Source of the DNA: an uncultured Planctomycetales bacterium
GTDB lineage: Bacteria; Omnitrophota; Gorgyraeia; Zapsychrales; JANLHA01
Assembly (NCBI GenBank): GCA_964374105.1
Contig: CAYJXI010000001.1
Coordinates: 71,743-135,742 of the forward strand
Reading direction: 5' to 3'
Length of the DNA stretch: 64,000 bases
In this document: positions 1-64,000 of the stretch, in pieces
How the letters are laid out: each line of letters opens with the position of its first letter
Numbering within the stretch: position 1 is the first letter of the stretch
The notes under the pieces: generated by a model
Seen by the model: the letters and a program-made list of their open reading frames with translations, nothing else
Database searches by the model: none
Told to the model about the DNA's origin: nothing
Position numbers and translations under genes: made by a program

Positions 1-3000
1 GTTGAACTAGGGGAGGTGAAGAAACGATACGATGAATTTTACAACCTCGTTTATTACGCGGTTAAGAATCAGGGAATCGCCTATCTCGATATAAAGAAAG
101 AAGAAGGAATCGTTTATTTGGTTGTGGAATGGACCAATTCTTTGATGGGGGTTAAAGAATCGGTATTCCGACTGGATCCCCAACACAGATTTAGCGAGAC
201 CTTAAAGAGACTTTGGAAAGAAACCATTATTAATATGGAAAAAGACGGTCAGATTGTCAAAGAAGTGCAGATGGAGTCCAATTATAAGACTTTAAGATTA
301 ACAAAGAATAAGAACGAAATGATTGCGGTTTTGAATGCCTTTTTGACCTACCTTGCTCAACACAAGATTGTCTTGGATGAATCAACCCAAATCCCAGAGT
401 TGGTTTATGGATTCTCGGAAAAATTGAAGAATACACTCCTTGGAGACTGGGGCGAGCCAACCTGGAAGGAGATCTGGTTATCGGAAGAAGAGTCGGCTCG
501 GTTTCACAAAAAAGTCACAAAAAAGAAAGGCAAGGAAACCCCTGAAAAGAAACCAGAAGAAACGAAACCCAAACGTCAGATTGATCCATTGACAGTTAAG
601 CTTAAAGGGATCTTCACCGAAGAGCTCACGAAATTAAGGAATCATAAACTTATTCGAGAGGTGTCATCCGTTAAAGTCTCGGATGAGGTTTTGGATGGAT
701 TACGCAAAATCGATGAGATCCTTGAAGGAATAGCTAAATTAAGTAAACACGCTTTCCCAACAAGATTCAAGAACTGGCTTGAGGAGTTAAGTGATTTAAG
801 CCATGGGGCCTTTAGATTATCATCGGGAATCGTATCAAGGCATATGATAACACATGATTTTGAAGGCTCAATAATCCATTTGAATTCCTATGCAGTATTA
901 GTGAACATGACCTATCAGGCCATCCGGGTGAGGAGCTTAAGGGCCGGCTTGGATGCAGGCACAAAAGAAGTCGAACTCGTGTTTGGCCCCTCCCAAGAAG
1001 GGTCTTACCAACAAACAGATAAGATTTGGCCTGTTTCCGATCCAGGGAAATATGAATCTGATTTTGAAGATTTGTTGAAGGCTTTGGAGGAATATTCAGA
1101 ACACTTCAAGAAAATAGCTGCCTTAGACCAAACCTACAATGTGATCTTGAAAGAATTGACAGAAGAAGGCCAAGTGCTTCTTAAGGATCGCGATGGGTTT
1201 ACTAAACCACTCACTGAAGGCAAGGTCGGTCTTACGCCAGAATATCAACTGAAATTCGAGGTGTTTGTAAACCGATTAGCCATCAAGATGTGGCTTACCC
1301 ATAATCTGGTTTGGACCGTAGAAAAGAAAGAGCAAGAACCTGCGATTTCCCATCGCTTTGAAATCCTGGGATTGATTCAGCAAAACCTGGTTGTCCTTCT
1401 TAAAACCCTGGGTATTCATAAAGTCAATGTGCAGAAACTCTTTGATAATGACTTTAGAATCTTTGTGGAACCAGAAAAAAGAAAGTCATCCTTTGACAAA
1501 GATGACGAACTCGTTGATGAGCACCGGCAACTCCTGTTGGAGATTTTAAGAGACTTTAAGCAAAGAGAAGAGATGAATGTTTATTTGGATATCTTCCAAT
1601 TCATGTTCAAACGAATTGTTGAACTCGGGTTGAACGCGAAAGGAGAGTTGGAGGAAGCGGAATTTGCGGTGACAGTGGCGGCTCAATTCCTGAAACATTT
1701 CTTTTCCATCCCGGCGATGTTCAACCAAAATCAAAGGATTGAGCTGGCCCTCAAAGAAGTCGCCAAAACCAGGAATGATCTGGCCATGATGCTGGCCATG
1801 GCTCAAGGAAGAAGTTGGGTGAATCAATTTGAAGGCCTCGTTCATTTGACAGAACTGGCCCTCTTGGCAGCCAATCCCCAGGCTTTAGAAATTCTTAATA
1901 AATTAGCCCGGGTGGCGGCTATTGACGATGCGAAAAGGCTGGATAATCCATCAGTAGTTTCTCAGCTTATCCAATTCCCATATAAGATCAATGATGATTC
2001 CACCATCAATGAAAAAGATTATGTGGATCTGGCAACGGGATATCAAGGGGTCTGGGCCTTGAGGGATTTAGAGACGGCCAAGAAGCGTAAGTTCATCTTT
2101 GTCGATTACAATCCGTTTGTTGCGGCTTATTTAGACAAGGCTGTCTCAGTCCGTGGACAGGAAGATCATATCAAAGTTATTGAAGCCAATGTCTTACTTT
2201 TAGACGAACACTTTGAGAAAGAAAGCATTGGGACGTTGCACTTAAGGGAGATCTTCCAGCACATTACGGAATTCCCGGCCGATTGGTATAAGAGATTAGC
2301 GGATTTGGTCACACCGGGTGGGGAAATTATTGTCGCTTATGAAGAGCCGGGGCTCGTCCAATCGGAGCCTCTTCAGTTAACGGCAATGGCGGGTAATAGA
2401 AAGTCTGGTGATGAGATTTTATTAGGCCTGCTTGATTTAGTTATCAAAGATCATTGGACAGTCAAATATGGTCACATCAATCCTCAAGGAGAATTCATCG
2501 AGAGGATGACCGGTTACCAAAGAGAAAATGCACCTTCCATCAATACTGTGTTTATCTTCACCAAACCCAAAACCCCAATGAAACCTCAGACGATTCAGTT
2601 TAAGAAGATCTTTACCGAAGAGCTGGAATGGTTCCTGCAACATGAGCTTATCGTTAGGTTATCAAAAGTTTCTGTGCCTCAAGAAGTCAAAGAGGGACTA
2701 GAGAAAGTCAAAGATATCTTGGCTCAGATCTCGCAGTTAGGCAAACATGCTTTCCCTGCCAGATATGAGAGTCTACTGGAAGAATTAAGCCAGCTGAGTG
2801 ACCGCGCCTTCCATCTGGCTTCCGAAACAGCGGTTTCACAATATACCAAACAAGTCATTGAATCAGAAGGCATCAGCATCGAAATGATCAATGATACCAA
2901 TACTTACGCAAGCCTTCTTACCATGACCTATCGTGCCATCAGGGTTAGGAGCATACGATTAGGTCTTAAGGTTGACTTGAAAGAGGTGGATCTCGTCTTT

Positions 3001-9000: not shown

Positions 9001-12000
9001 CTTAAACCCTATGTCATATTGGCGGTTGGCTTAGAGGGCATATTATATCTTAAGGATCTTCAACAGACATATAATCGCCAGTTTATTTTCGTTGAGAACT
9101 CTTTTTATATTGCCTCTTATCTAGAAAAAGGAATTCAAATACATCATCTCAAAGACGTCCAGGTCATAAAAACGGATACGAGACGATTAGAACACGTTTT
9201 TGAAGGAGGGAGCATTGGAACATTAAAATTGCAGAATATGTCGAAATTCATTGAAGAGGTATCTTCCGATTGGCCAAAGGTCTTGACTAAACTCTTAACA
9301 CCGGGCGGCCAGATCATTATTACTCTTGAGCCCCGAGGGGAAAAGTCCGAAGCCTTTGAATTGGAGGAGATGCTCTTAGAGGAAGGCTCGCCTATCGAGG
9401 TTTCTTTAGAGTTACAGTTAGTTGACATCTTAGATCAGACCGGAGAATTCGAATTGACTTATGGCCATGAATCTCCCACCCGTGGATTTGTTCATGCCGA
9501 ATCGGGTTATCGGCAAAAGGGCAAGGCGGATATCGAAACACTTTTTGTCTTTACAAAACGGATGATCGATCAATTAGAGGAAGAGGCTAGGAAGGCCGAG
9601 GGAGTCATCGAAGAAGCAGAGTTGAGATTGAAACTCCGTCCGGAAGATATGACGTTAGAGGAAGAGTTGGCCAAGTTACAAAGTAAACTTCATATTCACT
9701 GGGGAGATGAGGTGGATGATTATGTGAGCCATCGCACCATCCGATATCTTATCAAAAGACTATCAGAGATCACCGGTATCCCAGTTTGGAATCTAGGCCA
9801 CAATGAGTTTTTAAACAAACATCCTGATATCAGCAATGAAGAAAGAAACCGCTCCTTATCAGGGTTATATTCTTATTATCATCGAAAGAAGTTGGAGGGC
9901 GATATAAAATACCGGGCCTTAGAAGTGATTTTGGCCCATATTGGCCTTTTAGGAGAACAAATCTATAAGAATTCTCAACCCCAAGAAGAGACAGCCTGGC
10001 AGAGATTAGAACATTTTGTTGAGATCCTTGGGGTCAAACGACTTTATGTGGATTTGGATGAAACCTTATTCTGGCCGCAAGGGTGGGTCGGATCAGAAGA
10101 CTGGTTGGCCACAAGATTCCAAGAGACCGAACAGCCTATGCACGAACTTGTTAAACACGAAGAACGGATGATCAAAGCAGGCCTGCCTGCCGGACAGGCA
10201 GGGTATATTGTTGCTACCGATCCACACGTCAAGGATGTGCTTGAACGATTGCAATCGAAAAATATTGAAGTGATTGGCTTGACCGCCAGAAGCATTCGTT
10301 CCAAACCCAGGGTAGAATCGATCTTAAAAGTTTTAAAGATTAACATCCCGGTGATTTACGTAGGAAGGCAAAGGGCCGTCCATAAAGTCATCAGGCTAGA
10401 GAGAGATTTAGCCAAAAATAGGGTGAAGAGCCTATTTGTAGATAACCGCCCAGATGTTATTGAGGCTGCTGAGAAAAAGAAGATCCCGGAATTGAAGGTA
10501 GCGATTTTTGAGGCCAATCGTCATCCTCAGTGGAAAAACCCATTCTGGTACGTTAAAGAGGCCTCTGCCCAAATCGAGAATAAGAATTACCTCATGGCTC
10601 AAGAAGATCTCATCAATGCCTTAGAACTTTCTTCTCGGGTCGAGATGTCTCAAGAGGCCCGGGTTAAGCTTTATAGTGAGATTATGACCCTTATTGAACG
10701 AATGAGGAAAGAAAATGCTATTGACTTGTTTACCTTACTGCATTCCTTGTTAAGGAGTATGGTTAATCTTTTGATCCTACGTAACCAGCAGGAAAGGCCT
10801 GAAACCTTAACGCCGGAATTTCGAAAGATGCTGGAGAAATTCTTCCTCATTTACTTCCCTGAAAACGGTCAGCATATGGTGCGTTATTATGAAGATGGTT
10901 TGATCCTCATAAGGAAGCGAAAGGCCCGCGCTCAGGGAGAAGAATACTATTTTGTTGTGGAGGAAATGAATCTCTTTGCTTACCTTGAACCGGTCTTGAA
11001 GATGATTCTAAAAGAAAAGCCAGATAAGATTATTTTTGTTGATACCGGGGCTCGTCCTTTAAGCTGGGCCGTGGATATCTTTATTAAGCAATTTAGGACG
11101 CTCTTAAGAAAAGATACCAGCATCCATCTTTTGCCTTTGAGTCTTAAGAATAGCGGGGATACCTTAAAGAGTACGCGCTACTGGTTAAAATTGGCTAAAG
11201 CCTATCAGGAAGGTAGCCTTAAAGTAGATCATCTGAAACCCGAAGAACGAAAAGCCGTGTTGGCTTTTGCAAAACTCCTGCCTTTAGAAAATCAGACAAT
11301 CCTTGTTGTGGACGACAATATGGTCTCCGGAGATACCCTAGATATTGCTTATCACAGTTTGGCGGAATTCAATATCAAGGAATTAATGGGGTCGGTCATC
11401 TTTAGCTACCGCGATGGCAAGATTAAACGCAAAGAAGTGACCTCAACCTATATTGTTCCCGGCCAATTCAATTGGTACCGTAAAGTCATGCCGGTTGGGA
11501 TGAGATCAATTTGGGAAGCGGATATTACCTTAAGAGGAATCAAAGAGAGAACCAAATACAGTGCCGATCCCATCTCAGAAGACTTGACTCCTCAAGACGA
11601 AGAATATGCAAGATACATGCGCTTTAAAGAAAGACTGCTCTCTACTTTCCGGGAACATCTTAACCGTTACCGGGAGTATCTTTTGGAAGAACCCGGTGTG
11701 CAAACAGCGCCCCGTATCTACAAAAAAGGCGATTATGATCTTAAAGATGATCTAGAAGAGAGACTCGCTAAGTATGATCACAAGCTTCTACAAACGGCAT
11801 TCCCTGAATTTACTTTGAACACCGCTCAGGCCGAGTGGCGATTCACCCCCGTGTGGACATCTAAAGAATTGCGAGAATATGTTAATCGGGAGGAGGCCAG
11901 ACCTTCTGAACACTTGGCGGATCAATTGCTTTATAAAGATCTGGTCATTTATAGGATTTATAAGAAAGAGACGAAGGCAGATATAAAGCAGAGAGCGAGT

Positions 12001-54000: not shown

Positions 54001-57000
54001 CCTTTAGAGGTCTACGCTGATCCTTTGATCATTAACGACCAAAAGGTTTTCTATACAACTACGGAAGGTACTAGGTCCCAGGCAACGGGTAGCGAGAGGA
54101 CATTGCCTCGTGTTTTAAGGATTGGACCGGATATTTTTGTCCTCATCAACGAATACGGACCTCAGCCGGAAAGAATCACCTCGCAAATAAAAGGAATGAA
54201 ACAAAGATTAGGTAAGTTATACACCAAGAACACCGGGCGTATTCACTTTGTCCCGTATTCATTTTATAGTCGAGGGGATATCGAACAGACCGGTATCCCA
54301 TTGAGTCGAGACGCGGTTGTCGCGGTTGCCTCAATCGGTACGTTTATCAAAGAGAACGATACCGGTTTCGGGTTGGATTTAGGAACCGGTGAGGATGCGC
54401 TCTTAGGAAAGGTCATGATGAAACGCGGCCTTAAAGTTGTCTTGGTAGAAAAAGAGGCAGATTTGATTCCAAGAATCAGGACATATTTGGCCCATGAGGC
54501 CTCCCAAGAAAGTCAATGGGATTGGAACAAAGAATCCCACGAGTGGCAAAGAGGCGAGAGAGGTGATGGCGATTATGTCCTCCTTCAGGGGGATCTTTCC
54601 GATCAAGATTTCTTAAACAAACTCATGGAACATCCTTGGGTCAAACAAGCGAAGATCCTCACCGCTAATATCGGACCTTGGGGTTTCTATGGCAGTAAGG
54701 ACAAAAGCCAAATTCATCCCAATGAGGCTTCTGTTGGGATGGCGGTTGGCTTGCCTAACGTTAGATTCTTTATTAACAGCGGATACTATTTATCTTACCA
54801 AAGATCCTTCGAAGAAGGGCATCACGGGCAAGTTCTAAGCGCTAATAAACAATTCTTCAAAGACCAAGGATTTGAAGTAGATGTTTTGAAGATGAGTTCA
54901 AAATACAGTTCTGCCGCAACCTTAATAGCTTACCGGCAGCATAACAAGGGGACACTCAAAACAGGATTCCTTGGGCCTTATGAGGTGCTTGAGCCGGTGT
55001 CTTATGATCTTAAAGAAAACAAATTATCCGGGCAATTGAGAAACACCTCGACCAAAGAGGTAGTTGATCTGGCCTATACAACATATATTGAACGAGCCCC
55101 GCCGGCGGCGATTCGGGAAATGCTTATCGATGTGAAGAGGCTTGCTAGAAATCGGATCGTTACAAAAATTATTAGAAGATATTTAAGAAGTTTTGCTGGC
55201 CAAACCTTTATTATTGAACACCCTGCCGACATCACTTTAAGTTTTGCTAAAAAGAATCTCGTTGCGATTTCTCGGTATCTGATGAATACCCCCCTCGCTG
55301 TCTTCCACGAGATTGCACATGCCGTTCTCATCCGATCGGAAAATGAAAAACTCCTAAGGCAGTTTGATTCCTATTTACAAAAGGAAGCTTCCACTTTGAG
55401 ATTAGTGGAACTGAACAAGACCGGTGATTATCCTACCCTTCCCGACATTATCCATCGATTGATTATTGCCTTACAGAAATTTGCAATGCCTGAACTGAAT
55501 AAACAGCTCATCGGCAAACTCTATTATCTTGAAAAACTTCAAAGAGAACTTAAAGCAACCGATAAAGAAATCATAAGGAATGAATTAGATCATGTGGTGG
55601 TGATGAATAAAGAAAAAGGCATCGTGAGCGCTAACTGGTCAACAACCGAGGCATTCGCTAAAGAAAAGTTACCTAAAGAATATCGATATTTAACGCATAT
55701 TGGGCGATTAGATAAAAAGACAACTGGACTCTTATTATTCGGGAAGAAAGGATTCTTAGGAGTGACCCTGATTAATCCAACCCTTCATCCTGAACATAAG
55801 GTTAAGAAGGTCTATGAAGCGGTTGTTCAAGGCATACCTCAAGAAGAAGATTTACTGCGTTTAAAAGAAGGTATCGTGATTCGGTTTACCAAGATATCCC
55901 AGAAGGGCAAGAAGAGAGATAAGGTTGAGTATCTTGCCAAGGCGGTTGAGGCTAGATTGATTGAAGCTGATAGGAAAACAGCTGGAGTCCAAGTGGTCTT
56001 GACTGAAGGCAAAAACCGCCAAGTCCGTCGGATGCTGGCCAAGATCGGATTCCCTGCCCTTCGACTTAAACGCATTCAAATAGGTGAAGTTAAACTCGGC
56101 GATTTAAAACCTGGCAGAATAAGAAGATTAACCGATGAAGAAAAACAATGGATGTTAGGAGTTTATCGCCAGGGCCTGCGGCACATCTTGAATAAAGAAC
56201 TAAAGCCTTATCAAAGAATGAAAGGGCCGCTACGAACGAAGCTCAGTCACCTTCCGTGGCGGGTGGCGAGCAAAATAAGTCGTGCGTTCGTAGCGGCCTT
56301 GAAGATTATTAGACACTTAAGGAGATTGTTGGGGCATCGAAGCGTTGATTCAGAAGAACAAAAAGATTTGCCGGGATCTCACCAAGAAAAACGTGAGGTC
56401 CTTGGCTGGTGGAGGTATCGAAAAGAGCTTCGTCAAGAATTCGGCTGGCGCGGGATTTGGTATTTGGTGAAGGAAGATTGGAATATCATCCTGGCTTTCA
56501 TCAAGGAGTATGGTTGGATCCGCGGGGCGCCGATGGCGTTCACAACGCCGATCGCCACTCCAACCGCCTATATCCGGGCCTTCTATCGATTACCGCCGAT
56601 GTATCAAAATTCTATCTATGAACATGAAGAAATCCATAGGGAGGTGAAATCCGAATGGGAAGCTTATCAAGGGCAGTTACAGAAGATTCTCTTGGATAGA
56701 AAGATCGGAGATCTCAAGAGGTGGTTTAAGGAATCTTACCAACTGATAAAAGAGTTCTATTCACCTAAAGGAAAACATACGCCCAGCAGTGTAGTAACCA
56801 GTAGAACTGATGTAGAGATCGCAAAAGAATTGGAAGAAGATATTTATAAACAGATTTTTGAAGTGTTGGAAGAGATTAGCCAGCATATAGAGCGAGGGAG
56901 AATACGGCCGGATGTGAGACTGAGGGTATCTGAAAGAGAGGTACCAGGGTATATACCTAAAGATATGGGACGGCCGGTGCGCGCGGCGTTTCTACCAATG

Positions 57001-60000
57001 AAAGGGGATCCTTGGCAAATAGGGCATCTATTTGTGATTCTTAAAGGTATAGCCAGCCGACAGTTTGATAAAGTCATCGTTATGGTCGATAACAGTGATC
57101 CTGTCCGTAAACCCAATTTAAGATCATTAACCATTCGGGAAGCGATCAGCAGGATAATATTAAAGGAGTTAGGATCGCTAGTGCAGTATACGCCGGTTCC
57201 CAAAGAAGAGGAGGCCCTTTTCGCCGCCGATGGAGAAACGGTCTTGTTTAGACTGATTGAATTAAATAAAGATACCCCAATGGAAATAGATTACCTAGTT
57301 GGGTCGGATCATCGGTACTGGGAGATCACCAGGATTCATCCTGAGAGCAAGAAAGAAATTAAGTTGCCTGACACTACCAAGAAACTTTTTGATCATCAAG
57401 ATAGGCACCTGTACGGATATGAACGAGGCAAGAGTCCTAGAGTCAATATTTTGTTTTTTGAACGCATTGGGGAGCTTTTGACAGAAGAGGTGAGGAGAGA
57501 TTTAGAGAATAAATCTGGCATAAGGATAAATAAGATTTTCCATCGAATGGATTTATCATCGACACGGGTCAGGAAAGAAAGGCATTACTGGACGGTTCCC
57601 TGGATGATTTATGAACTTGCGAAAGCATTTAAACTTTGGGGATTTGAGGAACAACCCATTGGGGAAGGACAATCGGAGACTTGGGATCAACAACAAAAGA
57701 ATATAGCTGAGGGTTTAATGAGAATAGTTGAAAGGATGTTGATAAGTATTTTCAAAGATTATGAATCGGTCAAAGAGGAATTTAAGCGTGAATTAAGAAA
57801 AGCTTATGGACCGGCGATGGATATTTTGGACATGGGTATTATGAAGAGATTATTCCAGGCAGCCGATCCCCAGAAATCAAGAATGGCTCCGGAGGTTGTT
57901 ATACAAAGAGAACGACTAGAAGAGATCCGTGAATTGATCTTTGAACGAGGAGAAGAGATCGTCAGAGAGACATTATCAAGCAAGGCATTGGAGCGTCGGG
58001 TTCTGGGCTGGTGGCCGTATCGAAAAGCGCTTCGCCAAGAATTCGGTCTGCGCGGGATTTGGCATTTAATCAAGGAAGATTTCCATATCATCCGCGCCTT
58101 TATTAAGGAATACGGCCTTATTCGGGGAGCGCCAATGGCCTTCACCCAGCCGATTGCCACACCATCCGCCTATAACCTCGCCTTCCGTCATCTAGCCTTA
58201 TCTTATCAGCAATCTATCAACTTCCATGAAAGCGTCCATCGAGAGGGTGAAGATGAATTGAGAGCCTACGCTGAACAGTTAAGAGGGATTCAGAAAATGG
58301 TGTCTGTCCCCATTTCCATTTCTATGTCTCGTAGAGAAATGCTGAAAGTATCTTTAACAGGACTAGGGGCTGCCGCGCTAGCAAGTTGTCTGGGATGTGC
58401 CCTACCGAATTCGCCACAACCGGCATGGCTTACCAGAAATTCCAAAGATTATGTGGTTAAGCCGCTTGACTGGTCAACAATTATTGGTCAGGCAAGGGTG
58501 GTCTTTGTTGGAGAAACTGACCACGATACTCAAGATGATAAATACTTTGTGGCAAGGTCGCTTAAGGAATTAAAAGCCATCGGTATTACTCATCTGGCTT
58601 TGGAAAATTATGAGGCCCATACGCAGAGTCTTATTGATTTGTTCTTGCAAGGCGCAATCACCATGGTCGAGCTGGAAGAGAAGATCAGCAAAGCCCGGCC
58701 GCAAGGTGCCCGGTTGCCCAAGTTGTCGCCAGATTTTAGAGCCATCCTTGAAGCGGCCAAAGAAGCGCAGATAAAAATTATTGCCCTGGATAGCCCCCGA
58801 TATGCGCTGGGGACTGCGGGCGAACGTAATATTAAATGGGCAGGACTGATGCTGCCTGTTCTTAAGGATGACAAGATAAAGATTTTGGTTGTGGATGGAG
58901 CAGATCATTCGATCTACAAATACCGATATCTGAAGAGGCCCGGTGCCAGGATTCAGGATGATATAGGGTTACTTCCGGTTATTTCAGAGTTAATCATGAA
59001 GTATTACCCGGTTGTTGTAACTCAAATAGTCAGCACAGATCAACCTACCTTATGGTATACGAAAACTTTTGTTATCAACGCCATAAACGAAGGGGCTGAT
59101 CATAATGAAAGTGTTAATCTTGAGCAACCGCAGATGATTTACGCTCGTGAGGGTATTATCGATGAAGATAGCGACTACTACATTTATGCCCCTGAAATTT
59201 TATTGAACGATTTAGAGGATAAACTTAAGCAAGAACAGAAACGCCAAGTACTCGGCTGGTGGCCGTATCGAAAACAACTTATCAAAGAATTCGGTCTGCG
59301 CGGGATTTGGCATTTAATCAAGGAAGATTTCCATATCATCCGCGCCTTTATTAAGGAATACGGCCTTATTCGGGGAGCGCCAATGGCCTTCATTAACCCC
59401 ATCGCCTATTTCGATCTCAAGACACAACTGATCCATTATAATCTCGTCTTTCGGCATCTGCCCAAGAACATTAAAGAAACAATCGAAATTCATGAAGATG
59501 CACATATTGATGGTTTGGATGAGTTAGGTGCTTATTGGAAAGAATTATCGGAATTCACTTACCACATTTATCCTCGCTTGCAACGAGCAAAGCGCGCCTA
59601 CAACGTCAAATTACAACAGATATCCTCGAATGAATGGTTGGCGATCAGTTCCAAAGGGATATATCGATATCAATTGATTCAAATTGATGAAAGCAATGTC
59701 AAGAATTACAAAGAGCAAATAATGGGTCTCTTTGAGAATGATTCAGAATGGCTTAAGGAAGATGTCGTGGGTTACTATAAACGCATTCATTATGATGTCA
59801 AAGACCATAACATAGTTGGTTTATTTATAAATAACCGTATGGTTGGAATTTATGATCTCTTGAGTGAAGAATTTGCTTTCCATATGTATGTTAACCCGCA
59901 ATATCGGGGAACAGGTGCTGTTGATGTCTTATTTGAAGATTGGTTGTTACGATTCTTAAAAGGTGATGTTACGAAGCCCGTGACAGGTCAAATTAGGCGT

Positions 60001-63000
60001 AGTCCTAAAAAGAGCAAATTATCTTTTGAGGACGGGACGATTTATGAATTAAAAGATGCATTAGGTATTATTAGCAAGGTCGAAGTCGAATATTTAGGTG
60101 AACGAGGGAAATCTGCCCGCCGCGCCGATGGCGGGGCCCGCCGCGCCTTTGGCTGGTTAAGGTTTGCGTGGAAACTCTACAAAGAATTCAAGCTACACGG
60201 CATCTGGCATCTTCTTAAAGAAGACTTGGCGATCATCCGGGCCTTTATTAAAGAATACGGCCTGATCCGCGGGGCGCCGATGGCACTGAGAGAACCAATC
60301 GCCACACTGGCCGCTTACAATCTTGCCTTCCGGCACTTAAAATTAGAGTATCAACTTTCGATTAATATTCATGAAAATGCGCATCAGGAATGGGAAAATG
60401 AATTGCAAGCTTATCGAGAAGAACTACCGTGGGTTAAGGCAGTGAGGCAGGGTTTAGTTGGTCAAAGCAATCCCTTCCACCGTTATCGACTTAAAGGCAC
60501 TTTTGTCACCCAAACGTTTGATCGCATCGAGGATTTCGATACCGGCCAGTTTACCTTCGCTGTCATAGTCGGCAGCAATACCATCAGCGATATTCTCAGT
60601 CGTGACCGTAGTATTTTCTTTGAACATTATGTAGAGGGCATCAACTTTAGGATCGTAGGTAATGCGCATGAGACCTCCTTATTAGAAATAGTAAACGTAA
60701 ACAGTAACGACAATTATTTTCTTCTCTTCCTCGACAAAAATGGGCCTAACTTGTTTAGTCCTGCAATGCTTGCCATTCCACGTGCTGTTAAAAGGGAAAT
60801 CTTTACGGCATTCCCATTTGTTCAACTGCGACTTCTGCCATGGGATGGTATTAATGACTTCCGCAATCTCCGATTCGTTCGTGCCTCTCATCGTACAACG
60901 CATTTTAGCATGGGCACTCAAAAGGATCGTTCTAGCAATCATGCGTTTGATAGTACAATACCCAAGAAAGAAAGTCAACAGGCATTTCATTTGCGTCATC
61001 AATATCAACGTCGGGTTTTGGGCTGGCGGCCGTATCGAAAAGCGCTTCGCCAAGAACTCGGTCTGCGCGGGATTTGGCATTTAATCAAGGAAGATTTCCA
61101 CATCATCCGCGCCTTTATTAAGGAATACGGCCTGATCCGTGGATCTCCATTAAAGACACTCTATCGAGTGCCTTATGCCATTTGGCTTAGCTTGACTCAA
61201 CCCATCGCTACAGCTATCTCCTATAATGAGGCTTTCCAACATTTACCTCCCCAATACCAATTATCGATAAGATTTCATGAATATGCACACCTGGAAGGAC
61301 AAGATGAATTTGAAGCTTATCAATATGAGTTGCGCTTCATTCTTAAGAGGAGATCATTCTTAGAAAGAGCTTTTATTGAAATCCGAAAGGCTTATATGTT
61401 AATGATCGAGCACTCTCTAGATCGTGGCAGAATTATCCTGGATGGTATTTATTTCACAAACCAAGAAGAGAATCGGGAAGGAGCCGAGAAAGAGACGGAT
61501 TATTTGCGACAACTAGACATGAGGTTTAGAGATTTTTATGAGCATTTATCAGAAACTTCAGAAATCAATAAAGCAGCTGAGCATTTGCTTTCGCAGATTG
61601 ATAAGTCGGAAGGTTTCTTGAGAGATCATCAAACTGATTACTACCTTATTGCAGCAATCATGTTTAAAGAAGTCATTCAATTGTTAACGAGATTGGGGAA
61701 TGATCGTGAGGAGAGTATCGAAGTTGATGCGGCTATTCAGATGATTGGACTTGCTGTGGCTACTATGGATCGTTGGGTTTGGGAGATTAAAGCCGGAAAT
61801 TCAATTCAGTTAATCACTCAAATTGCACCAGATGCAAGGAAAATCAAAGTCAAGAAACAAACTATTATTTATAGCGTTTTAGGTGTGATGATTTATTTGT
61901 TTGCTTCTGTCAAATCTTTTCAGCAAAGGAAGCTTATTGGGAACATTGTCAGCAAGGATGATCAGGAATTGGAACTCAAATTCAAGATTGAACCGGCGCC
62001 GGAGCTGTGGGATTCGAACAAAAGATTGATAGACACAAAAGATTTACTTTCATCGGTTAAAGAAATATTACGAGTTGCGGGGGGATCTTTAGAACAAGAG
62101 GAGGGTGTTTCTACAGATTTTGTCATTCGATTGCCTCTACATAAAGGCGAAAAAGGTGACAGACACCACTTTAAAGTCGCTGTTTTGCCTGATGAAAGCT
62201 TTGAGGTGAGGATGACCGAAGGCGTGTTGGACCGTCAGAATACTCTGATCGCTGAGCAAATCGGCAGCAAGAAGGTGTTCTTCGTGGTGGACGATGGGGT
62301 AGGCAGTGGGACTGTCAGTGAGATTAAGGATTACATCCAGCATCATCGGCTTAAGGCCGAGGTGATGGTGGTCAAAGGCGGAGAACCGGTCAAGGACGGA
62401 TTGTCGCAGGCCCTGCAGGTCATTGACGAAGCAGAAAAATTCGGTATTGACCGCAAGGAAATTATGATTTTTGTCGGTGGAGGAGCGGTATTGGATATGG
62501 CCGGGTTTGCGGCCACTATCTTCCACCGGGGCGTTGAGCATATCCGGATTCCCACGACCCTCCTTTCCCAGATTGATGCCGGGGTGGGTGTTAAAAACGC
62601 GGTGAATTATCTGGGGCAGAAGAATTTCTTAGGTGCCTTCCAGCCGCCCAAGATGGTGATTGTGGATCCTAAGCTTTTGGCAACATTGGATGCCCGTCAA
62701 ATGAGTTCTGGCATGGCTGAGGCAGTGAAGGTGGCGTTGATTAAGAACAGAGAATTGTTTGAAATGATTGAACAGCATTATCAGGATGTCGCTAGGAAAG
62801 ATTTATCCGGCACCAGCCGCATGAAGGACATCATGTGGCTGACCATCGTCGCTCATCTTGAACAGATCTACACCGATCCGTACGAACGAAAGCTGGCTCG
62901 GCCATTGGATTTTGGCCATGAATGGGGACATCGTTTGGAGGTTGTGACCAAACACCGCCTGACCCACGGCGAAGGGGTCTCGATCGGCATGGCGATAGAT

Positions 63001-64000
63001 AGTTATATATCTTACAAGAGAGGTTATATCACTTCAGAAGATTTAGAGAGGATCCTTACTGTCTTAGAAAACATAGGCCTCCCACTCTATGACGAGGCCG
63101 CAACAGTCCAAGCCATCTGGCCCGGTCTGGAGAGCTTCCGTCGTCACCTGGGTGGTGAGCTGACCATTTCTCTGCTGAAGTCCATCGGTGAAAAGATTGA
63201 TGTTCATGAAATGAATCCTTCGCAGGTTGAGGAGGCGATTACCTATCTGAAGGATCGAAGAAAGGAAAAAGAAGATAGTGCCCGTAAGGCTAACAGTCTC
63301 TTAGGACTTGTGCCGGTTGCCAGCAAACGCCGTTCTCGTCTGGTTGACAATGTCTCAGCCGAGCGGATTGAGCGGATTAAGGAAATTTTCAAACGGATTG
63401 CTCCGCAATACATGAGTCATCTGCGGGAATTTACGGAGGTGACTTATCAAAAGAACATGGCAAGCTTTGCCGCGGTAGAAGTGGAAGGAAGTAACGCCTA
63501 TCTCAATCTTGAGGCCATGCTGATGAATGAGCCAACGGAACCGGAACTCAAAGAGGCCCGGGAAATTTTACAGGCGATACTGTATTTACATGAGACAATC
63601 CACTTCCGGCTGACCATTAAGGATACCACCAAAGCGGATTTGACCGAGGAGTTGTTTGTCTTTGTCATGGTGGATGCGGTTGTGTACGACGGTTTGAGTG
63701 CCCAACAGAAAGAGACATTAAGAAAATTGGCCGAAGAATTCGATCGGCAGGAATCGCTGGCAACGGGTGAGGCCATCACCCGTCTTTCGGATTCCTTGAA
63801 GATTTTTGCAGAGTTTGCCAAGGAGATCTTAAAGAGTAGAGATAAAACATTGATCGAAAAATTGGCGGCCCGGCTGAAAGAAAAGTACGAAGTCTTCCGG
63901 AATCAGGAATTGGATTGGAAGCGGTGGAATGAGCTTAAAGAAACACTTGAGCCGGTGAGCCCCATGACTAAGCTAGTTGAGGTGGCAGGAACCTTGCCTC
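1..64000 (+). CDS. Giant multidomain ORF, partial at both ends; frame +1 is stop-free across all 64,000 nt (at least 21,333 codons)
   Basis: Read in frame line by line (each 60-nt line starts a frame-1 codon); no in-frame TAA/TAG/TGA found anywhere. Coherent protein motifs run along the whole length. All ORF-track + strand ORFs are in frame 2 (one in frame 3) and short. The frame stays open even across the antisense of four minus-strand gene pairs. Confidence 0.85.
590..9560 (+). repeat. Four tandem ~2-2.9 kb protein-level repeat modules: helical region plus degenerate class-I methyltransferase/Rossmann-like core
   Basis: Recurrent motifs. 'KLK(G/A)IF(T/L)EEL' near 598, 2596, 4699 and 7561. 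'YVDLA(T/P)G(Y/P)(Q/R)G', 'F(I/V)(F/L)VD..F V.(A/T)YL.KA(V/I)', 'SIGTL(H/R/K)L(R/Q)', 'L(V/I).PGG(E/Q)II' and 'GHINPQGEF(I/V)E.MTGY...(F/L)IFTKP' near 1990-2580, 4030-4620, 6130-6700 and 9000-9560. Confidence 0.7.
10040..10520 (+). other. HAD-superfamily hydrolase-like domain
   Basis: Motif I 'YVDLDETLF' at ~10050 and motif IV-like 'LFVDNRPDVIEAA' at ~10430. Confidence 0.5.
11020..11370 (+). other. Phosphoribosyltransferase (type I PRTase) domain
   Basis: 'IIFVDTGARPL' and PRPP-binding-loop-like 'ILVVDDNMVSGDTL'. Confidence 0.55.
15160..16790 (+). other. SNF2-family helicase ATPase domain (N lobe plus helicase C)
   Basis: 'DDPGLGKTAQAIAAI' (motif I), 'ILDEAHRLRN' (DEAH box, ~15805), 'LVTATPL' (motif III), and C lobe 'VVIFTRF...FMDGSVPQKKRDQEI..FQ...FFVATYGTGGEAITLTAANHVILYDLEWAEPEQPINRVHRLGQTKNVYVHYL'. 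Confidence 0.8.
18250..20050 (+). repeat. Two further copies of the degenerate methyltransferase-like module
   Basis: 'LIIVDRSMFVVEYLKTVVEELG...KIGVIRIKE...MVTPGGKIIISKF...ETFFIFTK' (18.25-18.85 kb) and 'IFLVDSLFTAAFLNKASEVLG...IGTLHLNNL...KGKFMRNKTGY...TVYIFVRT' (19.44-20.05 kb). Confidence 0.6.
20380..20700 (+). other. RelE/ParE-like toxin-fold domain embedded in the sense strand
   Basis: 'WLPFTIQFSKNFLRDVKRSGK...WKWLYSFLEF...LKGKGTKADTRVYPHVWHDDNYRLYFDFLFKVENKISVIDGIRLFAFR' resembles RelE/ParE family architecture. Confidence 0.4.
22078..22226. mobile_element. 149-bp GC-rich palindromic MITE-like element inserted in frame
   Basis: 22-nt terminal inverted repeats, 'acatatgtgaagggtcggggag' (22078-22099) and 'ctccccgactggtcacatatgt' (22205-22226), matching 19/22. 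Three internal hairpins: gggtcggggag-ttt-ctccccgaccc, the perfect palindrome gagggatctcatgagatccctc, and gaccagtcgggga...tccccgactggtc. Flanked by atat/atat. Locally GC-rich; encodes the R/G/P-rich stretch 'VKGRGVSPRPFIPRNEVTRDLMRSLSPLGFGMTSRGIKQKTPRLVTY' with no stop. Confidence 0.5.
25860..26200 (+). other. PrmA/PrmC-like protein (Lys/Gln) N-methyltransferase domain
   Basis: 'ILDGGTGENAVLAIVASRLGAQEVIAVDNIDINLAGAQENIRRNGI...IDIVMTNFPW' (SAM motif I plus an NPPY-like 'TNFPW'). Confidence 0.55.
27985..28600 (+). other. Uridine kinase/phosphoribulokinase-family P-loop kinase domain
   Basis: Walker A 'INGTAASGKTFF'. 'IIELDDFL..KEQR', 'VSIPQFDQGTRKR', 'KVVIVEGILILLNRAVNRRFDLKVFLDADPDERVRRELYRKWNEGRY' (Udk-like layout). 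A second, degenerate copy lies at ~28940-29400. Confidence 0.7.
30330..31080 (+). other. Inositol monophosphatase/CysQ-family (FIG) phosphatase-like domain
   Basis: 'DGSFVTPADVEIQNKIV...WVWVVDPLDGTKAYRGGHKGYAFSLALL' (DPxDGT motif) and a downstream 'W(D)WAA..A' region. Confidence 0.6.
31150..31870 (+). other. RmlD-like dTDP-4-dehydrorhamnose reductase / NAD(P)-binding SDR domain
   Basis: 'LRVAVIGASGYLGKKI' (GxxGxxG), 'VIIYAAGEASPERAEKDPARAETLNAGV', '[35 protein letters not shown]' (YxxxK). Confidence 0.75.
32160..33010 (+). other. HAD-IIB-like hydrolase domain
   Basis: Motif I 'IVLDLDRTAT' at ~32170. 'IIISGSAY'. Motif IV 'LALGDSSVD' at ~32940. Confidence 0.55.
33290..34100 (+). other. Transketolase N-terminal (thiamine-diphosphate-binding) domain
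   Basis: 'GHFGASMSVADILVTLYF', 'ILSEGHAVATLHSIL', 'TGSLGQGLGRGIGMALA', 'FVILGDGEAQEGQVSESM...LDHLIVIMDRNKIQL'. Confidence 0.85.
34240..35190 (+). other. Transketolase C-terminal section (pyrimidine-binding plus C-terminal domains)
   Basis: 'RIVFLTADLTGS', 'FPDRYFDVGIREQSMANIAAGLADSGKRPVVVVYDAMVNLMAEQIRFIAQ', 'GAVGGVGSAMGGRSHQSSAESALYKYIPAMHYFEPADANETYELL', 'GIIVATGSIMRNVLKVYEELRKQGINVRVINI'. Confidence 0.85.
35231..35280. repeat. ~50-bp direct repeat flanking TA pair 1 (partner copy at 36224-36273; each encodes a hydrophobic TM-like segment)
   Basis: 'atcggcaaaatccaaaatcaacattgtctgcctttgaacccttgaccttg' versus 'atcggcaagatccaaaatcaacattgtctgcctttgacccatggaccttg'. Both are preceded by a GGTGA(C/T)AGTC motif. 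Confidence 0.8.
35409..35747 (-). CDS. DUF5615 family protein (PIN/Mut7-C-like putative toxin), pair 1
   Basis: 112 aa beginning 'MKFLIDEDVPIKL...ILISLDKDF...IIVVD', typical of DUF5615 partners of DUF433. Immediately downstream of the DUF433 gene on the same strand. Confidence 0.75.
   Translation of the reverse strand: MKFLIDEDVPIKLMRTLTALGHDVVGVPRSSSDMSNALLAKREDRILISLDKDFFNVLLFPPSEFNIIVVDIHPPNKDVILGAFVGLLDILPSAELRGLIILMKDGTIRIPG
35756..35998 (-). CDS. DUF433 family protein (antitoxin-like partner of DUF5615), pair 1
   Basis: Hallmark N-terminal motif 'PQICHGKVCFQGTRIPIYLVLELLEGGVSPQEII'. RBS GGAGAAAAAG before the ATG at 35998. Stop TAA at 35758-35756, 8 nt before the DUF5615 start. Confidence 0.8.
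   Translation of the reverse strand: MNLQKYLSVDPQICHGKVCFQGTRIPIYLVLELLEGGVSPQEIIGQDYYPELTLDHIKATLHFAAQVAKNQEFLDLHKSK
36350..36720 (+). other. Minimal nucleotidyltransferase (MNT/pol-beta superfamily) domain
   Basis: 'ILGVVIFGSVASGKATLKSDLDFMLIV' (GS-x9-13-DxD motif). Confidence 0.6.
38898..38926. repeat. 29-nt 13-3-13 perfect inverted repeat GGGGACTGTCCCC-tct-GGGGACAGTCCCC
   Basis: Direct reading; in frame it encodes 'GTVPSGDSP'. Related to the recurrent GGTGACAGTCACC 13-mers at 36197, 52444, 53724, 53740 and 62155, which encode 'GDSH'. Confidence 0.7.
39390..39900 (+). other. Block of ~4 predicted transmembrane helices
   Basis: Hydrophobic stretches 'GVIAGIILIFGIIYPL', 'MPFWITLAVGKILWHLF', 'LLITGLQFLMLGLF', 'VYFFISLILGLLVPHFVVDLIVTPLTGWLILF'. 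Confidence 0.45.
44940..45110 (+). other. Second phosphoribosyltransferase-type motif region
   Basis: 'KVVLIVDDNETTGFTAAGLRAAAYEAGAQQVFALAYGKS'. Confidence 0.5.
46190..46620 (+). repeat. 'RNIT' linker module copy 1 of 4 (others at 47322-47700, 48501-48900, 50690-51070)
   Basis: Shared pattern 'RNIT(A/S)(E/D/S)A(L/F)..(F/Y)...........AYY(N/D)..TDQI(I/V)WN.....I...L......FTT.E(I/V)..LI.FIREHE..H......NP.HSE.D(I/V)F..QIK'. Each copy contains HExxH (HEGEH, HEKRH, HEEHH, HEKLH). Confidence 0.75.
46651..47010 (-). CDS. DUF5615 family protein, pair 2
   Basis: 119 aa 'MIKLILDADIPRSFLYELQSQDYDVVDV...VLITRDLDF...GIIVLR', homologous to the other DUF5615 copies. Start codon overlaps the DUF433 stop by 1 nt (translational coupling). 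Confidence 0.75.
   Translation of the reverse strand: MIKLILDADIPRSFLYELQSQDYDVVDVRDISKTPLKDEEIFAIARREGRVLITRDLDFSNILHYPPQKSCGIIVLRTHLLSKEKMYKIIKNILNEIPADKLRGSLVIAQTNRLRFYRT
47010..47258 (-). CDS. DUF433 family protein, pair 2 (start trimmed from the ORF-track call to the internal ATG at 47258)
   Basis: '[47 protein letters not shown]'. Strong RBS GGAGGTATTGAT before the ATG at 47258-47256. The stop TAA overlaps the next gene's ATG (TAATG) at 47010. Confidence 0.8.
   Translation of the reverse strand: [82 protein letters not shown]
47322..47433. repeat. 112-nt perfect direct repeat (second copy at 48501-48612)
   Basis: 'ccgcaacatcaccgctgaggcgctggagaaatttatcaatgctagaaataacagtagcgagccgttaactgaaaccgtcacccagcggctgcagatgttcgtggcgatgttg' is identical at both sites (start of RNIT linker copies 2 and 3). 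Confidence 0.85.
51220..51560 (+). other. Class I SAM-dependent methyltransferase-like domain
   Basis: 'ILLIGAGAEDVRFIAQRYPKGQMAVVSLG...FDFIYIKG...AMRLIGPGGIIY'. Confidence 0.5.
52490..52800 (+). repeat. 'GW' linker module copy 1 of 7 (others at 53566-53880, 56398-56660, 58000-58260, 59250-59520, 60150-60410, 61008-61300)
   Basis: Shared pattern '(V/A)(L/F)GW..YR..L..EFG..GIWHL.KED..II.AFIKEYG.IRGAPMAF..PIAT..AY..AF.HL...YQ.SI..HExxH.E....E(L/F).AY'. HExxH is present in all seven copies (HEQDH, HEFYH, HEEIH, HESVH, HEDAH, HENAH, HEYAH). Copies 1 and 2 (52486-52650 vs 53562-53726) are about 90% identical at the DNA level and flank TA pair 3. Copies 4 and 5 share about 105 identical nt (58039-58143 vs 59288-59392). 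Confidence 0.8.
52803..53171 (-). CDS. DUF5615 family protein, pair 3
   Basis: 122 aa 'MKLLIDECVLVQTAKILRQSGFSVVTIQELGK...IITTDLDF...GVILLR'. Starts 1 nt after the DUF433 stop. Confidence 0.75.
   Translation of the reverse strand: MKLLIDECVLVQTAKILRQSGFSVVTIQELGKASATNGTVINIANKEKATIITTDLDFGNLNLYPTKSHCGVILLRPRLDTLGAMEAVHTVLVRVLKEVPASELSKSLVIVDRDKYRIRSED
53173..53454 (-). CDS. DUF433 family protein, pair 3 (start trimmed to the ATG at 53454)
   Basis: '[54 protein letters not shown]'. RBS GGAGATTCAAAAA before the ATG. The longer ORF-track call (to 53631) adds an implausible N-terminal extension that is antisense to a conserved + strand linker module. Confidence 0.8.
   Translation of the reverse strand: [93 protein letters not shown]
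54300..54700 (+). other. Methyltransferase-like Rossmann domain
   Basis: Motif I-like 'GFGLDLGTGEDALLGKVMMKRGLKVVLVEKEADLIP'. Confidence 0.4.
55590..56150 (+). other. RsuA/RluB-type pseudouridine synthase domain
   Basis: 'VVVMNKEKGIVSA...YRYLTHIGRLDKKTTGLLLFGKKG...KVYEAVVQG...KEGIVI...[52 protein letters not shown]' (catalytic Asp in 'GRLDKKTTGLL', and 'GKNRQVRRM'). Confidence 0.8.
56980..57330 (+). other. NadD/cytidylyltransferase-like nucleotidyltransferase domain
   Basis: 'AFLPMKGDPWQIGHLFVILKGIASRQFDKVIVMVDNSDPVRKPNLRSLTIREAISRIIL', HxGH-like 'QIGHL'. Confidence 0.45.
58324..58410 (+). other. Internal twin-arginine (Tat) signal peptide with lipobox-like cysteines
   Basis: 'MSRREMLKVSLTGLGAAALASCLGCALP' begins at an in-frame ATG, immediately after GW linker copy 4. 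Confidence 0.6.
58440..58960 (+). other. ChaN/Tiki/TraB-like (DUF399-type) domain
   Basis: 'ARVVFVGETDHDTQDDKYFVARSLKELKAIGITHLALENYEAH...IKIIALDSP'. Confidence 0.35.
59690..60000 (+). other. GNAT N-acetyltransferase-like domain
   Basis: 'IVGLFINNRMVGIYDLLSEEFAFHMYVNPQYRGTGAVDVLFEDWLLRF' (GNAT motif A-like Q/RxxGxG). Confidence 0.5.
60454..60669 (-). CDS. DUF2283 family protein (putative antitoxin partner of DUF4258), pair 4
   Basis: 'MRITYDPKVDALYIMFKENTTV...DYDSEGKLAGIEILDA' matches the DUF2283 'YDxExDALYI...GxxxGIEIL' pattern. RBS AAGGAGGTCTC before the ATG at 60669, 12 nt after the DUF4258 stop. Confidence 0.75.
   Translation of the reverse strand: MRITYDPKVDALYIMFKENTTVTTENIADGIAADYDSEGKLAGIEILDAIKRLGDKSAFKSITVEGIALTN
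60682..60942 (-). CDS. DUF4258 family protein (putative toxin), pair 4; start uncertain (alternative ATGs at 60990, 60999, 61080)
   Basis: 'MIARTILLSAHAKMRCTMRGTNESEIAEVIN...KHCRTKQVRPIFVEEEKKIIVVTVYVYYF' fits the DUF4258 pattern (HA..RM.eRgI...ei.evl ... iiVvTvY). No clear Shine-Dalgarno before any candidate start. Stop TAA at 60684-60682. Confidence 0.6.
   Translation of the reverse strand: MIARTILLSAHAKMRCTMRGTNESEIAEVINTIPWQKSQLNKWECRKDFPFNSTWNGKHCRTKQVRPIFVEEEKKIIVVTVYVYYF
62200..63120 (+). other. 3-dehydroquinate synthase / sugar-phosphate-cyclase-like domain
   Basis: '[73 protein letters not shown]', '...DFGHEWGHRLEVVTKHRLTHGEGVSIGMAID' (AroB-family nucleotide- and metal-binding motifs). 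Confidence 0.75.

Follow-up and report, generated by a model that had tools for sequence, protein, structure and literature searches.

Predicted antisense toxin–antitoxin operons nested within the stop-free reading frame of a giant, Omnitrophota-type multi-enzyme gene

The 64,000-nt stretch of contig CAYJXI010000001.1 analyzed here (hereafter, the window; positions are counted from its first letter) is an internal piece of one genuine protein-coding gene of more than 64 kb, within which lie four complete two-gene toxin–antitoxin (TA) cassettes, all on the opposite strand, that the giant frame crosses without meeting a stop codon. Such nesting recurs across several lineages of Omnitrophota, and stop avoidance in the giant frame is apparent at the level of the codons of the nested genes. 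The giant gene itself belongs to an already described kind; the nested, dual-coded TA operons are what is new. As a whole, we consider it very probable that the window derives from a giant Omnitrophota multi-enzyme gene with nested TA operons, that this gene is read through them, and that they persist as addiction modules or passengers with a possible protective effect.

A six-frame scan recovered no TAA, TAG, or TGA among the 21,333 codons of frame +1, against 1,301, 1,648, 1,430, 896, and 999 stops in the other five frames, whose longest open stretch is 534 nt. Frame +1 is open at both ends of the window, so that the gene, of at least 21,333 codons, must extend beyond it. From the base counts, approximately 0.062 stops per codon, or some 1,300 in all, would be expected in this frame by chance. 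An earlier note on this DNA had described the entire window as a single stop-free frame, open at both ends, belonging to a gene of more than 64 kb and kept by selection, all of which the scan bears out; its figure of about 1,000 chance stops holds as an order of magnitude and falls short of the computed value. The GC content is uniform along the window (0.40 to 0.49), with a positive GC skew. With frame +1 as the training set, a log-odds score of codon usage stands at 0.29 ± 0.08 in that frame and exceeds the score of all other frames except at a few (four) short places. When the product was scanned with Pfam over overlapping 1,000-aa pieces for domains of the giant frame, every match was in frame +1, and Rfam and tRNA scans of the window for noncoding RNAs gave nothing. 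Stop codon reassignment can be ruled out: eight small genes on the minus strand terminate in TAA or TGA, so that standard stops are used in this DNA and the open frame is not a recoding artifact.

In frame +1, the codon score breaks down at ~35,250–36,150, ~46,560–47,460, and ~52,710–53,250 and dips at ~60,540–60,960, and at exactly these places the minus strand carries pairs of small genes with ATG starts and TAA or TGA stops (Table 1). Three of these cassettes (C1 to C3) combine DUF433 with DUF5615, with both domains above the gathering score, adjacent, and the antitoxin upstream, while the fourth (C4) pairs a DUF4258-like gene with DUF2283. Seven of the eight nested genes match their Pfam family at 52 to 83 bits, against cut-offs of about 23 (about 23.7). 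The eighth, the DUF4258-like gene of C4, is without a Pfam match; it is 44% identical (E = 4e-21) to the open reading frame (ORF) at the same position in the related contig L018 and weakly similar to the Pfam-confirmed DUF4258 of two further relatives, L002 and L005 (see below for these contigs). DUF433/COG2442 and a PIN-like toxin from the Mut7-C group (COG4634, PIN_10/DUF5615) have been predicted to form type II TA pairs (PMC5499597; PMC2701414), and a canonical PIN–COG2442 pair, vapBC10 of Synechocystis, has been validated experimentally (PMC3834315).

The cassettes have the layout of autonomous operons, in that the paired genes abut, overlap (by ATGA in C2), or stand no more than 12 nt apart. 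Four of the nested genes have a putative Shine-Dalgarno sequence 5 to 10 nt before the start codon (6 to 10 nt in C1 to C3), which reads GGAG (DUF433 of C1, at 6 nt, and of C3), GGAGG (DUF433 of C2), or AGGAGG (DUF2283 of C4). All four cassettes further show a putative sigma-70-like promoter, recognized at the level of the consensus only, 8 to 45 nt upstream of the first gene (26 to 45 nt in C1 to C3): TTGACA-17-(TG)TAGACT at 36071–36043 in C1, the top match of the 5-kb region around that cassette; TTGACA-17-TATACT at 47312–47284 in C2, matching the consensus at 11 of 12 positions; TTGACA-17-(TG)TACAGT at 53510–53482 in C3; and TTGACT-17-TACTAT at 60978–60950 in C4. By our estimate, about 0.05 such matches would be expected per 60-nt upstream window. 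In C1, a terminator-like hairpin (35403–35387) follows 6 nt past the toxin stop. The 74 remaining off-frame ORFs of ≥52 aa in the window served as a negative control, and Pfam matched none of them. NCBIfam returned no models for the nested proteins, and three other dips in the codon score (45181–45480, 48871–49320, and 58171–58620) are without a recognizable off-frame gene. Across the cassettes, the frame +1 product is acid poor and partly Ser/Arg/Leu rich, unlike the remainder. About 4% of the giant frame, in four stretches of 175 to 237 codons (aa 11803–12024, 15551–15771, 17601–17837, and 20152–20326), is not ordinary coding sequence but read-through of antisense TA operons, the most unusual feature of the window, which the earlier note had missed.

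Each of the four cassettes is flanked on both sides by direct copies of a sense-strand module, namely, D5 for C1, E modules for C2, D4 for C3, and D1 for C4; D5 encodes the sequence PKSTLSAF(E/D)P.. and a hydrophobic helix. Separately, a 17-nt palindrome, AAGGTGACNGTCACCTT, recurs in the window and yields a recurrent (K/E)GDSH peptide in frame +1. Copies of it bracket C1 and stand a few hundred nucleotides to either side of C3; a terminator, an element like the repetitive extragenic palindromes, and a recombination site are candidates for its nature. Pfam scans of the window detected no integrase domain, and this simple 17-nt hairpin is its sole recurrent palindrome.

The passage of frame +1 through the cassettes was evaluated with a recoding test, in which the nested protein sequence was held fixed, synonymous codons were resampled, and the stops arising in frame +1 were counted. 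Approximately 21 stops are predicted over the eight nested genes and none is seen, the probability of which is 3e-13 if codons are drawn at host frequencies, 1e-11 if usage is taken as uniform, and 9e-10 if the already biased usage of the nested genes themselves is applied. The other two plus frames contain 8 to 16 stops per window cassette (13 and 12 across C1, for instance, where frame +1 has none) and 5 to 16 when the related cassettes are included. Four free-standing DUF433 loci from phage contigs, two of them with DUF5615, have 2 to 7 stops in every opposite frame. The test gave probabilities of 1e-7, 9e-5, and 3e-3 for the relatives L002, L005, and L007, respectively, and of ~1e-16 for L018, where 31 stops are expected over 15 nested genes and none is present. 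Frame +1 reads C1, C2, and C3 in different registers, which implies that the stop-free state was reached more than once. A comparison of the nested genes of L002 and L005, which are 94% identical, is informative with regard to which of the two frames is constrained as protein: when read as the antisense genes, their substitutions are 12 synonymous to 5 nonsynonymous, with 7 to 0 for DUF2283, whereas the same sites give 3 synonymous to 14 nonsynonymous in the giant frame, and the sole indel is of 9 nt. This pattern points to protein-level constraint on the small genes, with the giant frame merely being kept open.

Relatives were recovered by two routes. A profile of the F module, one of the repeated modules of the giant product (see below), retrieved 29 proteins among 1.84 billion representative proteins, mostly of 1,000 to 6,200 aa. 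All ten that were looked up are annotated as "partial," and seven of the nine with a named source come from Candidatus Omnitrophota/Omnitrophica; a scan of GTDB genomes with an F-module pattern found nothing. Each contig encoding one of these relatives is a single frame that stays open over its whole length. Searches with the F module led to the ENA contig L002 and the JGI contigs L003 to L006 (one of which, L005, covers 11.6 kb of a contig of 50.6 kb), representing a lineage of 31 to 35% GC, and to L007, a contig of an NCBI Omnitrophota metagenome-assembled genome (MAG) with 47.6% GC. In all of L002 to L007, one frame is open (with one stop in L002) and the opposite strand encodes DUF433 plus DUF5615 and/or DUF4258 plus DUF2283; in L007, a scan of 3 kb placed its best promoter-like site 52 nt ahead of the first gene. 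In this survey, which was not systematic, whenever a related Omnitrophota giant ORF was associated with such a pair, the pair was nested. The second route, searches with the C3 antitoxin, recovered 147 homologs at E values of ≤1e-8, the best being 70 to 89% identical and those with a named source mostly from Omnitrophica. Three of these homologs are on long contigs, and each of the three is nested in an opposite-strand ORF that is free of stops over 5.9, 17.4, or >20.2 kb. In L018 (Omnitrophica MAG GCA_016235185.1, JACRLT010000040.1; 2108–12781), eight TA pairs with 15 genes occupy 11 kb (PIN, two HicAB, three PIN_3, DUF433/DUF5615, and DUF4258/DUF2283; at least four families), all on one strand and wholly enclosed by an opposite-strand ORF that is stop free over more than 20 kb. 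The gene table retrieved for L018 has entries for the small genes and none for the giant ORF.

As the relatives found through the F module and the nested genes are, where their source is named, mostly from Candidatus Omnitrophota, the gene most likely falls in the Omnitrophota "multi-enzyme" class, in line with the earlier note's pointer to Omnitrophota. Further observations on these contigs concern their ends and irregularities. L002 has a single in-frame TAA at position 1361 of an otherwise open 3.4-kb frame; no counterpart of this position aligned in L005 or the other related contigs, so that an error, a variant, and a true end are all conceivable. On the minus strand of L005 (342–536), a 64-aa ORF with a hydrophobic C-terminal half and without a Pfam match stands beside DUF4258/DUF2283 and may be a third nested gene. 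In L011 (11838–12187) and L019 (3892–4781), small PilZ domain genes, one or two in number, stand directly behind the 3' terminus of the giant ORF, and in L019 an ABC sugar transporter operon comes next; the PilZ genes may represent conserved synteny at the end of the gene.

We propose that ribosomes would run through each cassette and thereby produce spacer peptides of 175 to 237 aa on which the sole constraint is the absence of a stop. Antisense would be the only orientation available to an independent gene inside a continuous ORF, and it would be tolerated because the stop codons of the cassette are read as sense codons in the giant frame and because, on the giant mRNA, the U-run precedes rather than follows the terminator hairpin. 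The cassettes would act as addiction modules or selfish passengers, of which only stop-free variants spare the giant gene. In-frame recombination between the flanking module copies would then shorten the gene and, at the same time, delete the antitoxin gene and free the toxin. In chromosomal integron arrays, promoter-bearing TA cassettes are reported to penalize cassette loss (PMC13108822), and by analogy the cassettes might protect the repeat-rich giant gene from deletion, a role that we advance tentatively. In its general form, that the giant genes of Omnitrophota are landing pads for antisense TA operons that guard them against in-frame deletion, with long-range antiparallel dual coding as the outcome, the proposal is quite possible, if short of probable. 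The flanking duplications could, speculatively, record single-crossover insertion by a circle carrying a module copy.

Several points weigh against this account. Promoter-like matches are not enriched overall (27 versus 30.7 expected), so that only their positions are telling. The L007 cassette is without flanking repeats, nested genes are absent from L008 to L010, L012, L013, and the coding part of L011, and in L020 (10001–10310) DUF433 is kept while similarity ends ~45 nt beyond it, the toxin apparently having been lost. The phage control set is tiny, with two of its four loci nearly identical, and the substitution counts from L002 and L005 are small (17 sites). The window contains no marker gene, tRNA, or rRNA, and its organism is deduced from relatives. 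Translation through the cassettes and expression of the nested genes are predictions from the sequence, and the protective role is drawn by analogy.

The strongest competitor of the protective reading is that the cassettes are purely selfish and that giant genes, as the largest target in small, gene-dense genomes, simply accumulate those insertions that are, or soon become, stop free and hence survive, with no benefit to the host. This would accommodate the crowding into 11 kb of L018 of eight pairs that represent four or more TA families and the eroded pair of L020, as well as the fact that the giant ORFs around C3-like antitoxins resemble that of the window solely where they read through the shared cassette, which they do in the same register; nucleotide similarity between these otherwise unrelated ORFs stops at the borders of the TA genes. 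It leaves unexplained, however, the duplicated sense modules around each window cassette and the several cassette-free relatives, and it is compatible with a stabilizing effect. We judge selfishness alone to be about as likely as protection, and regulation of the giant gene to be less likely than either. Under the latter, head-on transcription or antisense RNA from the operons would throttle the >64-kb transcript, or, conversely, strong transcription of the giant gene would silence the antitoxin promoters and trigger the PIN-like RNases. Each cassette's promoter-like site does face giant-gene transcription, and the palindrome copies at 35387, 36197, and 52442, three of the seven, which are located at or close to the edges of C1 and C3, were called terminator-like (hairpin plus T-run) when the minus strand was scanned. 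Yet regulation would have no need of intact TA genes conserved at the protein level, and the TA families differ between loci; both forms of this explanation strike us as rather improbable.

Two further alternatives concern the giant frame itself and turn on its repeats. Self-comparison with BLASTP revealed diverged modules in the product, namely, six A, four E, and seven F modules, which are particular to this gene family and link its enzyme domains, and several two-copy modules. Their presence could be taken to favor an artifact of assembly or data (collapsed repeats, a chimera, or concatenated coding sequences), and misassembly due to internal repeats had been raised as a worry in the earlier note. 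The nucleotide repeats of the window are, however, at most 221 nt long and at most 91% identical, and the module copies are 25 to 67% identical at the protein level, which indicates old duplications and makes repeat collapse unlikely; we reject it on these lengths and identities, which lend the worry no support. Moreover, composition and codon usage are uniform, a concatenation would not contain antisense promoters, genes, and terminators, and the same architecture is found in independent assemblies from NCBI, JGI, ENA, and Logan, so that an artifact of any kind is very hard to credit. Alternatively, the giant ORF might encode a polyprotein from which separate enzymes are released, the HExxH-bearing E and F modules being self-processing metalloproteases at the junctions. 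The F module, of ~110 aa and four helices (AlphaFold2 pLDDT of 81), has an invariant HExxH..E..Y signature and separates cargo units. HExxH occurs 16 times in the product versus 1.0 expected, and 11 of the 16 stand at the C terminus of an E or F module, directly ahead of the next cargo. Processing would also make sense of the signal sequence of the ChaN cargo described below, which is workable only after cleavage or as an internal anchor, and West-Roberts et al. (bioRxiv 10.1101/2023.11.21.568195) consider that C39/S8 domains might perform such cleavage. Neither fold nor sequence supports the F module as a zincin protease; for the F/E junction modules, no HExxH helix set in a mixed alpha/beta zincin fold was found. 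We regard a self-processing polyprotein as unlikely.

Giant bacterial genes are a recent discovery, and whether they are translated as predicted is still debated. The nested operons provide an internal test, with evidence at the sequence level that giant ORFs are read as one unit: a frame that remains stop free across 15 foreign antisense genes (P ~ 1e-16; ~1e-11 to 1e-13 in the window) is hard to explain unless ribosomes traverse it. They are also among the clearest cases of antiparallel overlapping coding in bacteria, with both partners recognizable, several lineages represented, and constraint visible at the codon level. Because gene callers output either the giant ORF or the small genes and not both, the TA content of Omnitrophota and the integrity of their giant genes are probably misannotated. 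If cassettes prevent deletion, this would help explain how repeat-filled genes of 60 to 400 kb stay intact; if the landing-pad and guard reading is true, nested operons would be a normal functional part of giant genes that current annotation pipelines hide.

A "multi-enzyme metabolic cluster" class has been described for the giants of Omnitrophota, which reach 147,155 aa (Nielsen & Lui 2026, bioRxiv 10.64898/2026.06.07.730766); the set of that study comprises 5,761 Omnitrophota ORFs of at least 10 kAA. As in that class, many enzyme Pfams tile the polypeptide of the window with none dominant, the content includes methyltransferases, HAD, kinases, and sugar metabolism, the relatives are from Omnitrophota, the internal repeats are diverged without recent nucleotide tandems, and the length (≥21,333 codons) lies above the ≥10,000 codons that define its members. 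The architecture, which the earlier note could match to none known, is therefore of a described kind. In contrast to what is seen here, the paper does not mention opposite-strand genes, nested-operon read-through, F/E junction modules, or cysteine depletion. Many transmembrane helices are reported for the class; a crude hydropathy scan of the window fragment, which lies downstream of the N terminus, found few (seven strong hydrophobic segments, two of them within read-through spacers). Both papers on Omnitrophota giant genes cited here leave opposite-strand genes, overlap, polyproteins, and cysteine content unmentioned, and full-text searches of the literature on Omnitrophota or Velamenicoccus archaeovorus with antisense or antitoxin gave nothing relevant. 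The "Archaeovorin" type of V. archaeovorus (West-Roberts et al. 2023, bioRxiv 10.1101/2023.11.21.568195) shares with the window an Omnitrophota origin, which for the window is probable, and a methyltransferase-rich, mostly unannotated mosaic. By Pfam, these 64 kb, which do not include the N terminus, encode no SecA-DEAD, glycosyl transferase/hydrolase, NUDIX, or peptidase domain; in their place are an SNF2 ATPase with Helicase_C and enzymes of the central metabolism type. The absence of SecA-DEAD, glycosyl transferase, and NUDIX domains from the fragment makes Archaeovorin a poorer fit than the multi-enzyme class.

With respect to the nested genes, known TA pairs of DUF433 and a PIN-like partner have the same abutting small genes, the antitoxin first, and their own promoter; they are free-standing, whereas those of the window are wholly nested in antisense, with one opposite frame stop free. 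Antiparallel overlapping genes reported in bacteria are mostly single, short, and debated. Those of the window, in contrast, are whole two-gene operons that are recognized by Pfam and recurrent in several lineages, with measurable stop avoidance. Sedentary chromosomal integron arrays (Richard et al. 2024, PMC13108822) resemble the window in having TA units with their own promoters among repeat-separated cargo, but the window is without an integrase or attC and its "array" is one translated ORF with protein-coding junctions, so that the likeness is an analogy and not membership.

The remainder of the giant product is a mosaic of repeated modules and enzyme cargo (Table 1). The A module consists of a helical part and a C-terminal class I methyltransferase fold of ~200 aa; for its model (AlphaFold2 pLDDT of 79), the top Foldseek matches are all S-adenosylmethionine (SAM) methyltransferases (E = 1e-9). 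The methyltransferase is the most repeated fold, with at least eight in the product. Sixteen Pfam domain instances, from ~14 distinct enzyme families, score above gathering and cover ~12% of the product, or ~17% if the methyltransferase-fold modules are counted. The more than 25 recognizable domains given in the earlier note are only roughly reproduced by these 16 instances, six methyltransferase-fold modules, and a few subthreshold matches. In the dark cargo segments, relaxed Pfam thresholds gave just subthreshold hints of GNAT, phosphoribosyltransferase, and methyltransferase domains, and a 1,700-aa protein query retrieved merely an unrelated 2,328-aa protein of high GC (P0001/L001), an ordinary gene.

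The solved structures nearest to the sugar-phosphate cyclase are 4P53 (ValA, a 2-epi-5-epi-valiolone synthase [EEVS]; E = 3.8e-56) and then 5TPR (E = 2.4e-50), which was deposited under the title "3-dehydroquinate synthase." A full transketolase and an EEVS-type cyclase thus share one polypeptide. Transketolase yields sedoheptulose 7-phosphate, which EEVS-type cyclases consume, and the combination may hint at cyclitol biosynthesis. The ChaN cargo has its own twin-arginine and lipobox signal, MSRREMLKVSLTGLGAAALASC (SRREMLK...LASC; nt 58354–58398, aa 19452–19466), ~19,000 residues into the polypeptide. This internal signal suggests the capture of a whole lipoprotein gene, and cleavage there, possibly by signal peptidase II, can be envisaged from the motif. 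Elsewhere (51850–52120, aa ~17290–17370), the sole CC of the product occurs as GGCCQD, with ILAHVFAVV...YLVDTTF ~50 residues downstream. A transglutaminase-like Cys-His-Asp protease core at this site was considered on a by-eye likeness and dropped, Pfam being unsupportive at E values of ≤1.

Table 1. Features of the window, with coordinates, strand, and supporting evidence
Feature	Coordinates	Strand	Evidence or details
Giant ORF, internal fragment	1..64000	+	0 stops; uniform GC and codon usage; Pfam in frame
N-terminal ~160-aa repeated domain in A region	~49–540, ~7042–7470	+	
A modules, ~690 aa, four in tandem	562–2565, 2560–4638, 4636–6765, 7420–9600	+	Self-BLASTP, 25–41% identity
DUF2608 (HAD-like)	10048..10347	+	Pfam PF11019, 38.8 bits
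SNF2-family ATPase	15187..16659 (SNF2-rel_dom 15187–16143; Helicase_C 16321–16659)	+	Pfam E 1.7e-31, 1.7e-15; PDB 1Z63 E 5e-39
Two more partial A modules (methyltransferase-fold half)	17854–18894, 19243–20172	+	Self-BLASTP, alignment
PrmA-like SAM methyltransferase	25585..26160	+	Pfam PF06325 E 3e-14; PDB 3GRZ
Two PRK/uridine-kinase-like P-loop kinases	27994–28440, ~28942–29760	+	Pfam PF00485 E 8.8e-12; internal repeat, 28% identity
Inositol-monophosphatase-family domain	30271–31053	+	Pfam E 2.1e-25
RmlD/epimerase-type NAD(P) reductase	31147–31944	+	Pfam E 1.6e-41
Complete transketolase	N 33298–34005, Pyr 34252–34731, C 34777–35100	+	Pfam E 2.8e-49, 5.1e-29, 4.2e-11
D5 direct repeat bracketing C1	35195–35298, 36188–36291	+	80% identity
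C1	35387..36071	-	DUF5615 toxin 35409–35747, DUF433 antitoxin 35756–35998; Pfam 51.9, 67.6 bits
Palindrome AAGGTGACNGTCACCTT, 17 nt	35387, 36197, 38896, 52442, 53722, 53738, 62153	.	7 copies vs 0.16 expected
Pol-beta-type nucleotidyltransferase	36373..36576	+	Pfam PF18765 E 7.5e-8
Four E modules ending in HExxH	46126–46680, 47278–47700, 48448–48900, 50602–51075	+	Self-BLASTP, 25–67% identity
C2	46651..47312	-	DUF5615 46651–47010, DUF433 47010–47258; Pfam 82.1, 73.5 bits
Seven F modules	52438–52830, 53512–53970, 56338–56715, 57943–58320, 59188–59580, 60088–60450, 60958–61365	+	Alignments
D4 direct repeat bracketing C3	52485–52645, 53559–53719	+	88% identity
C3	52803..53510	-	DUF5615 52803–53171, DUF433 53173–53454; Pfam 79.6, 82.9 bits
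RluA/RsuA-type pseudouridine synthase	55591..56043	+	Pfam PF00849 E 7.8e-17; PDB 2OML
ChaN/Tiki-family cargo	58354..58818 (ChaN domain 58489–58818)	+	Pfam PF04187 E 2.3e-11
D1, F copies bracketing C4	60145–60303, 61015–61173	+	
C4	60454..60978	-	DUF4258-like 60682–60942, DUF2283 60454–60669; DUF2283 69.1 bits
Sugar-phosphate cyclase, dehydroquinate-synthase superfamily	62365..63090	+	Pfam E 1.2e-36, 9.2e-28

The product is extremely poor in cysteine, with 11 among 21,333 residues (0.05%); TGY triplets abound in the two remaining plus frames, with 433 and 853 copies. CxxC pairs account for eight of the 11, and those at aa 7549/7552, 15993/15996, and 16725/16728 have loosely similar contexts. 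The pair at 19463/19466 consists of the Cys in the ChaN lipobox and a second one three positions further on, so that two of the 11 are in or beside this lipobox. By eye, the nested antisense proteins have Cys at an ordinary frequency, and the Cys content of the related giant ORFs is 0.13 to 1.5%. Finally, an imperfect palindrome of 88 nt (22104–22191), with overlapping 47-nt arms that are 79% complementary, lies in the coding frame and is the sole inverted repeat reported in the window.

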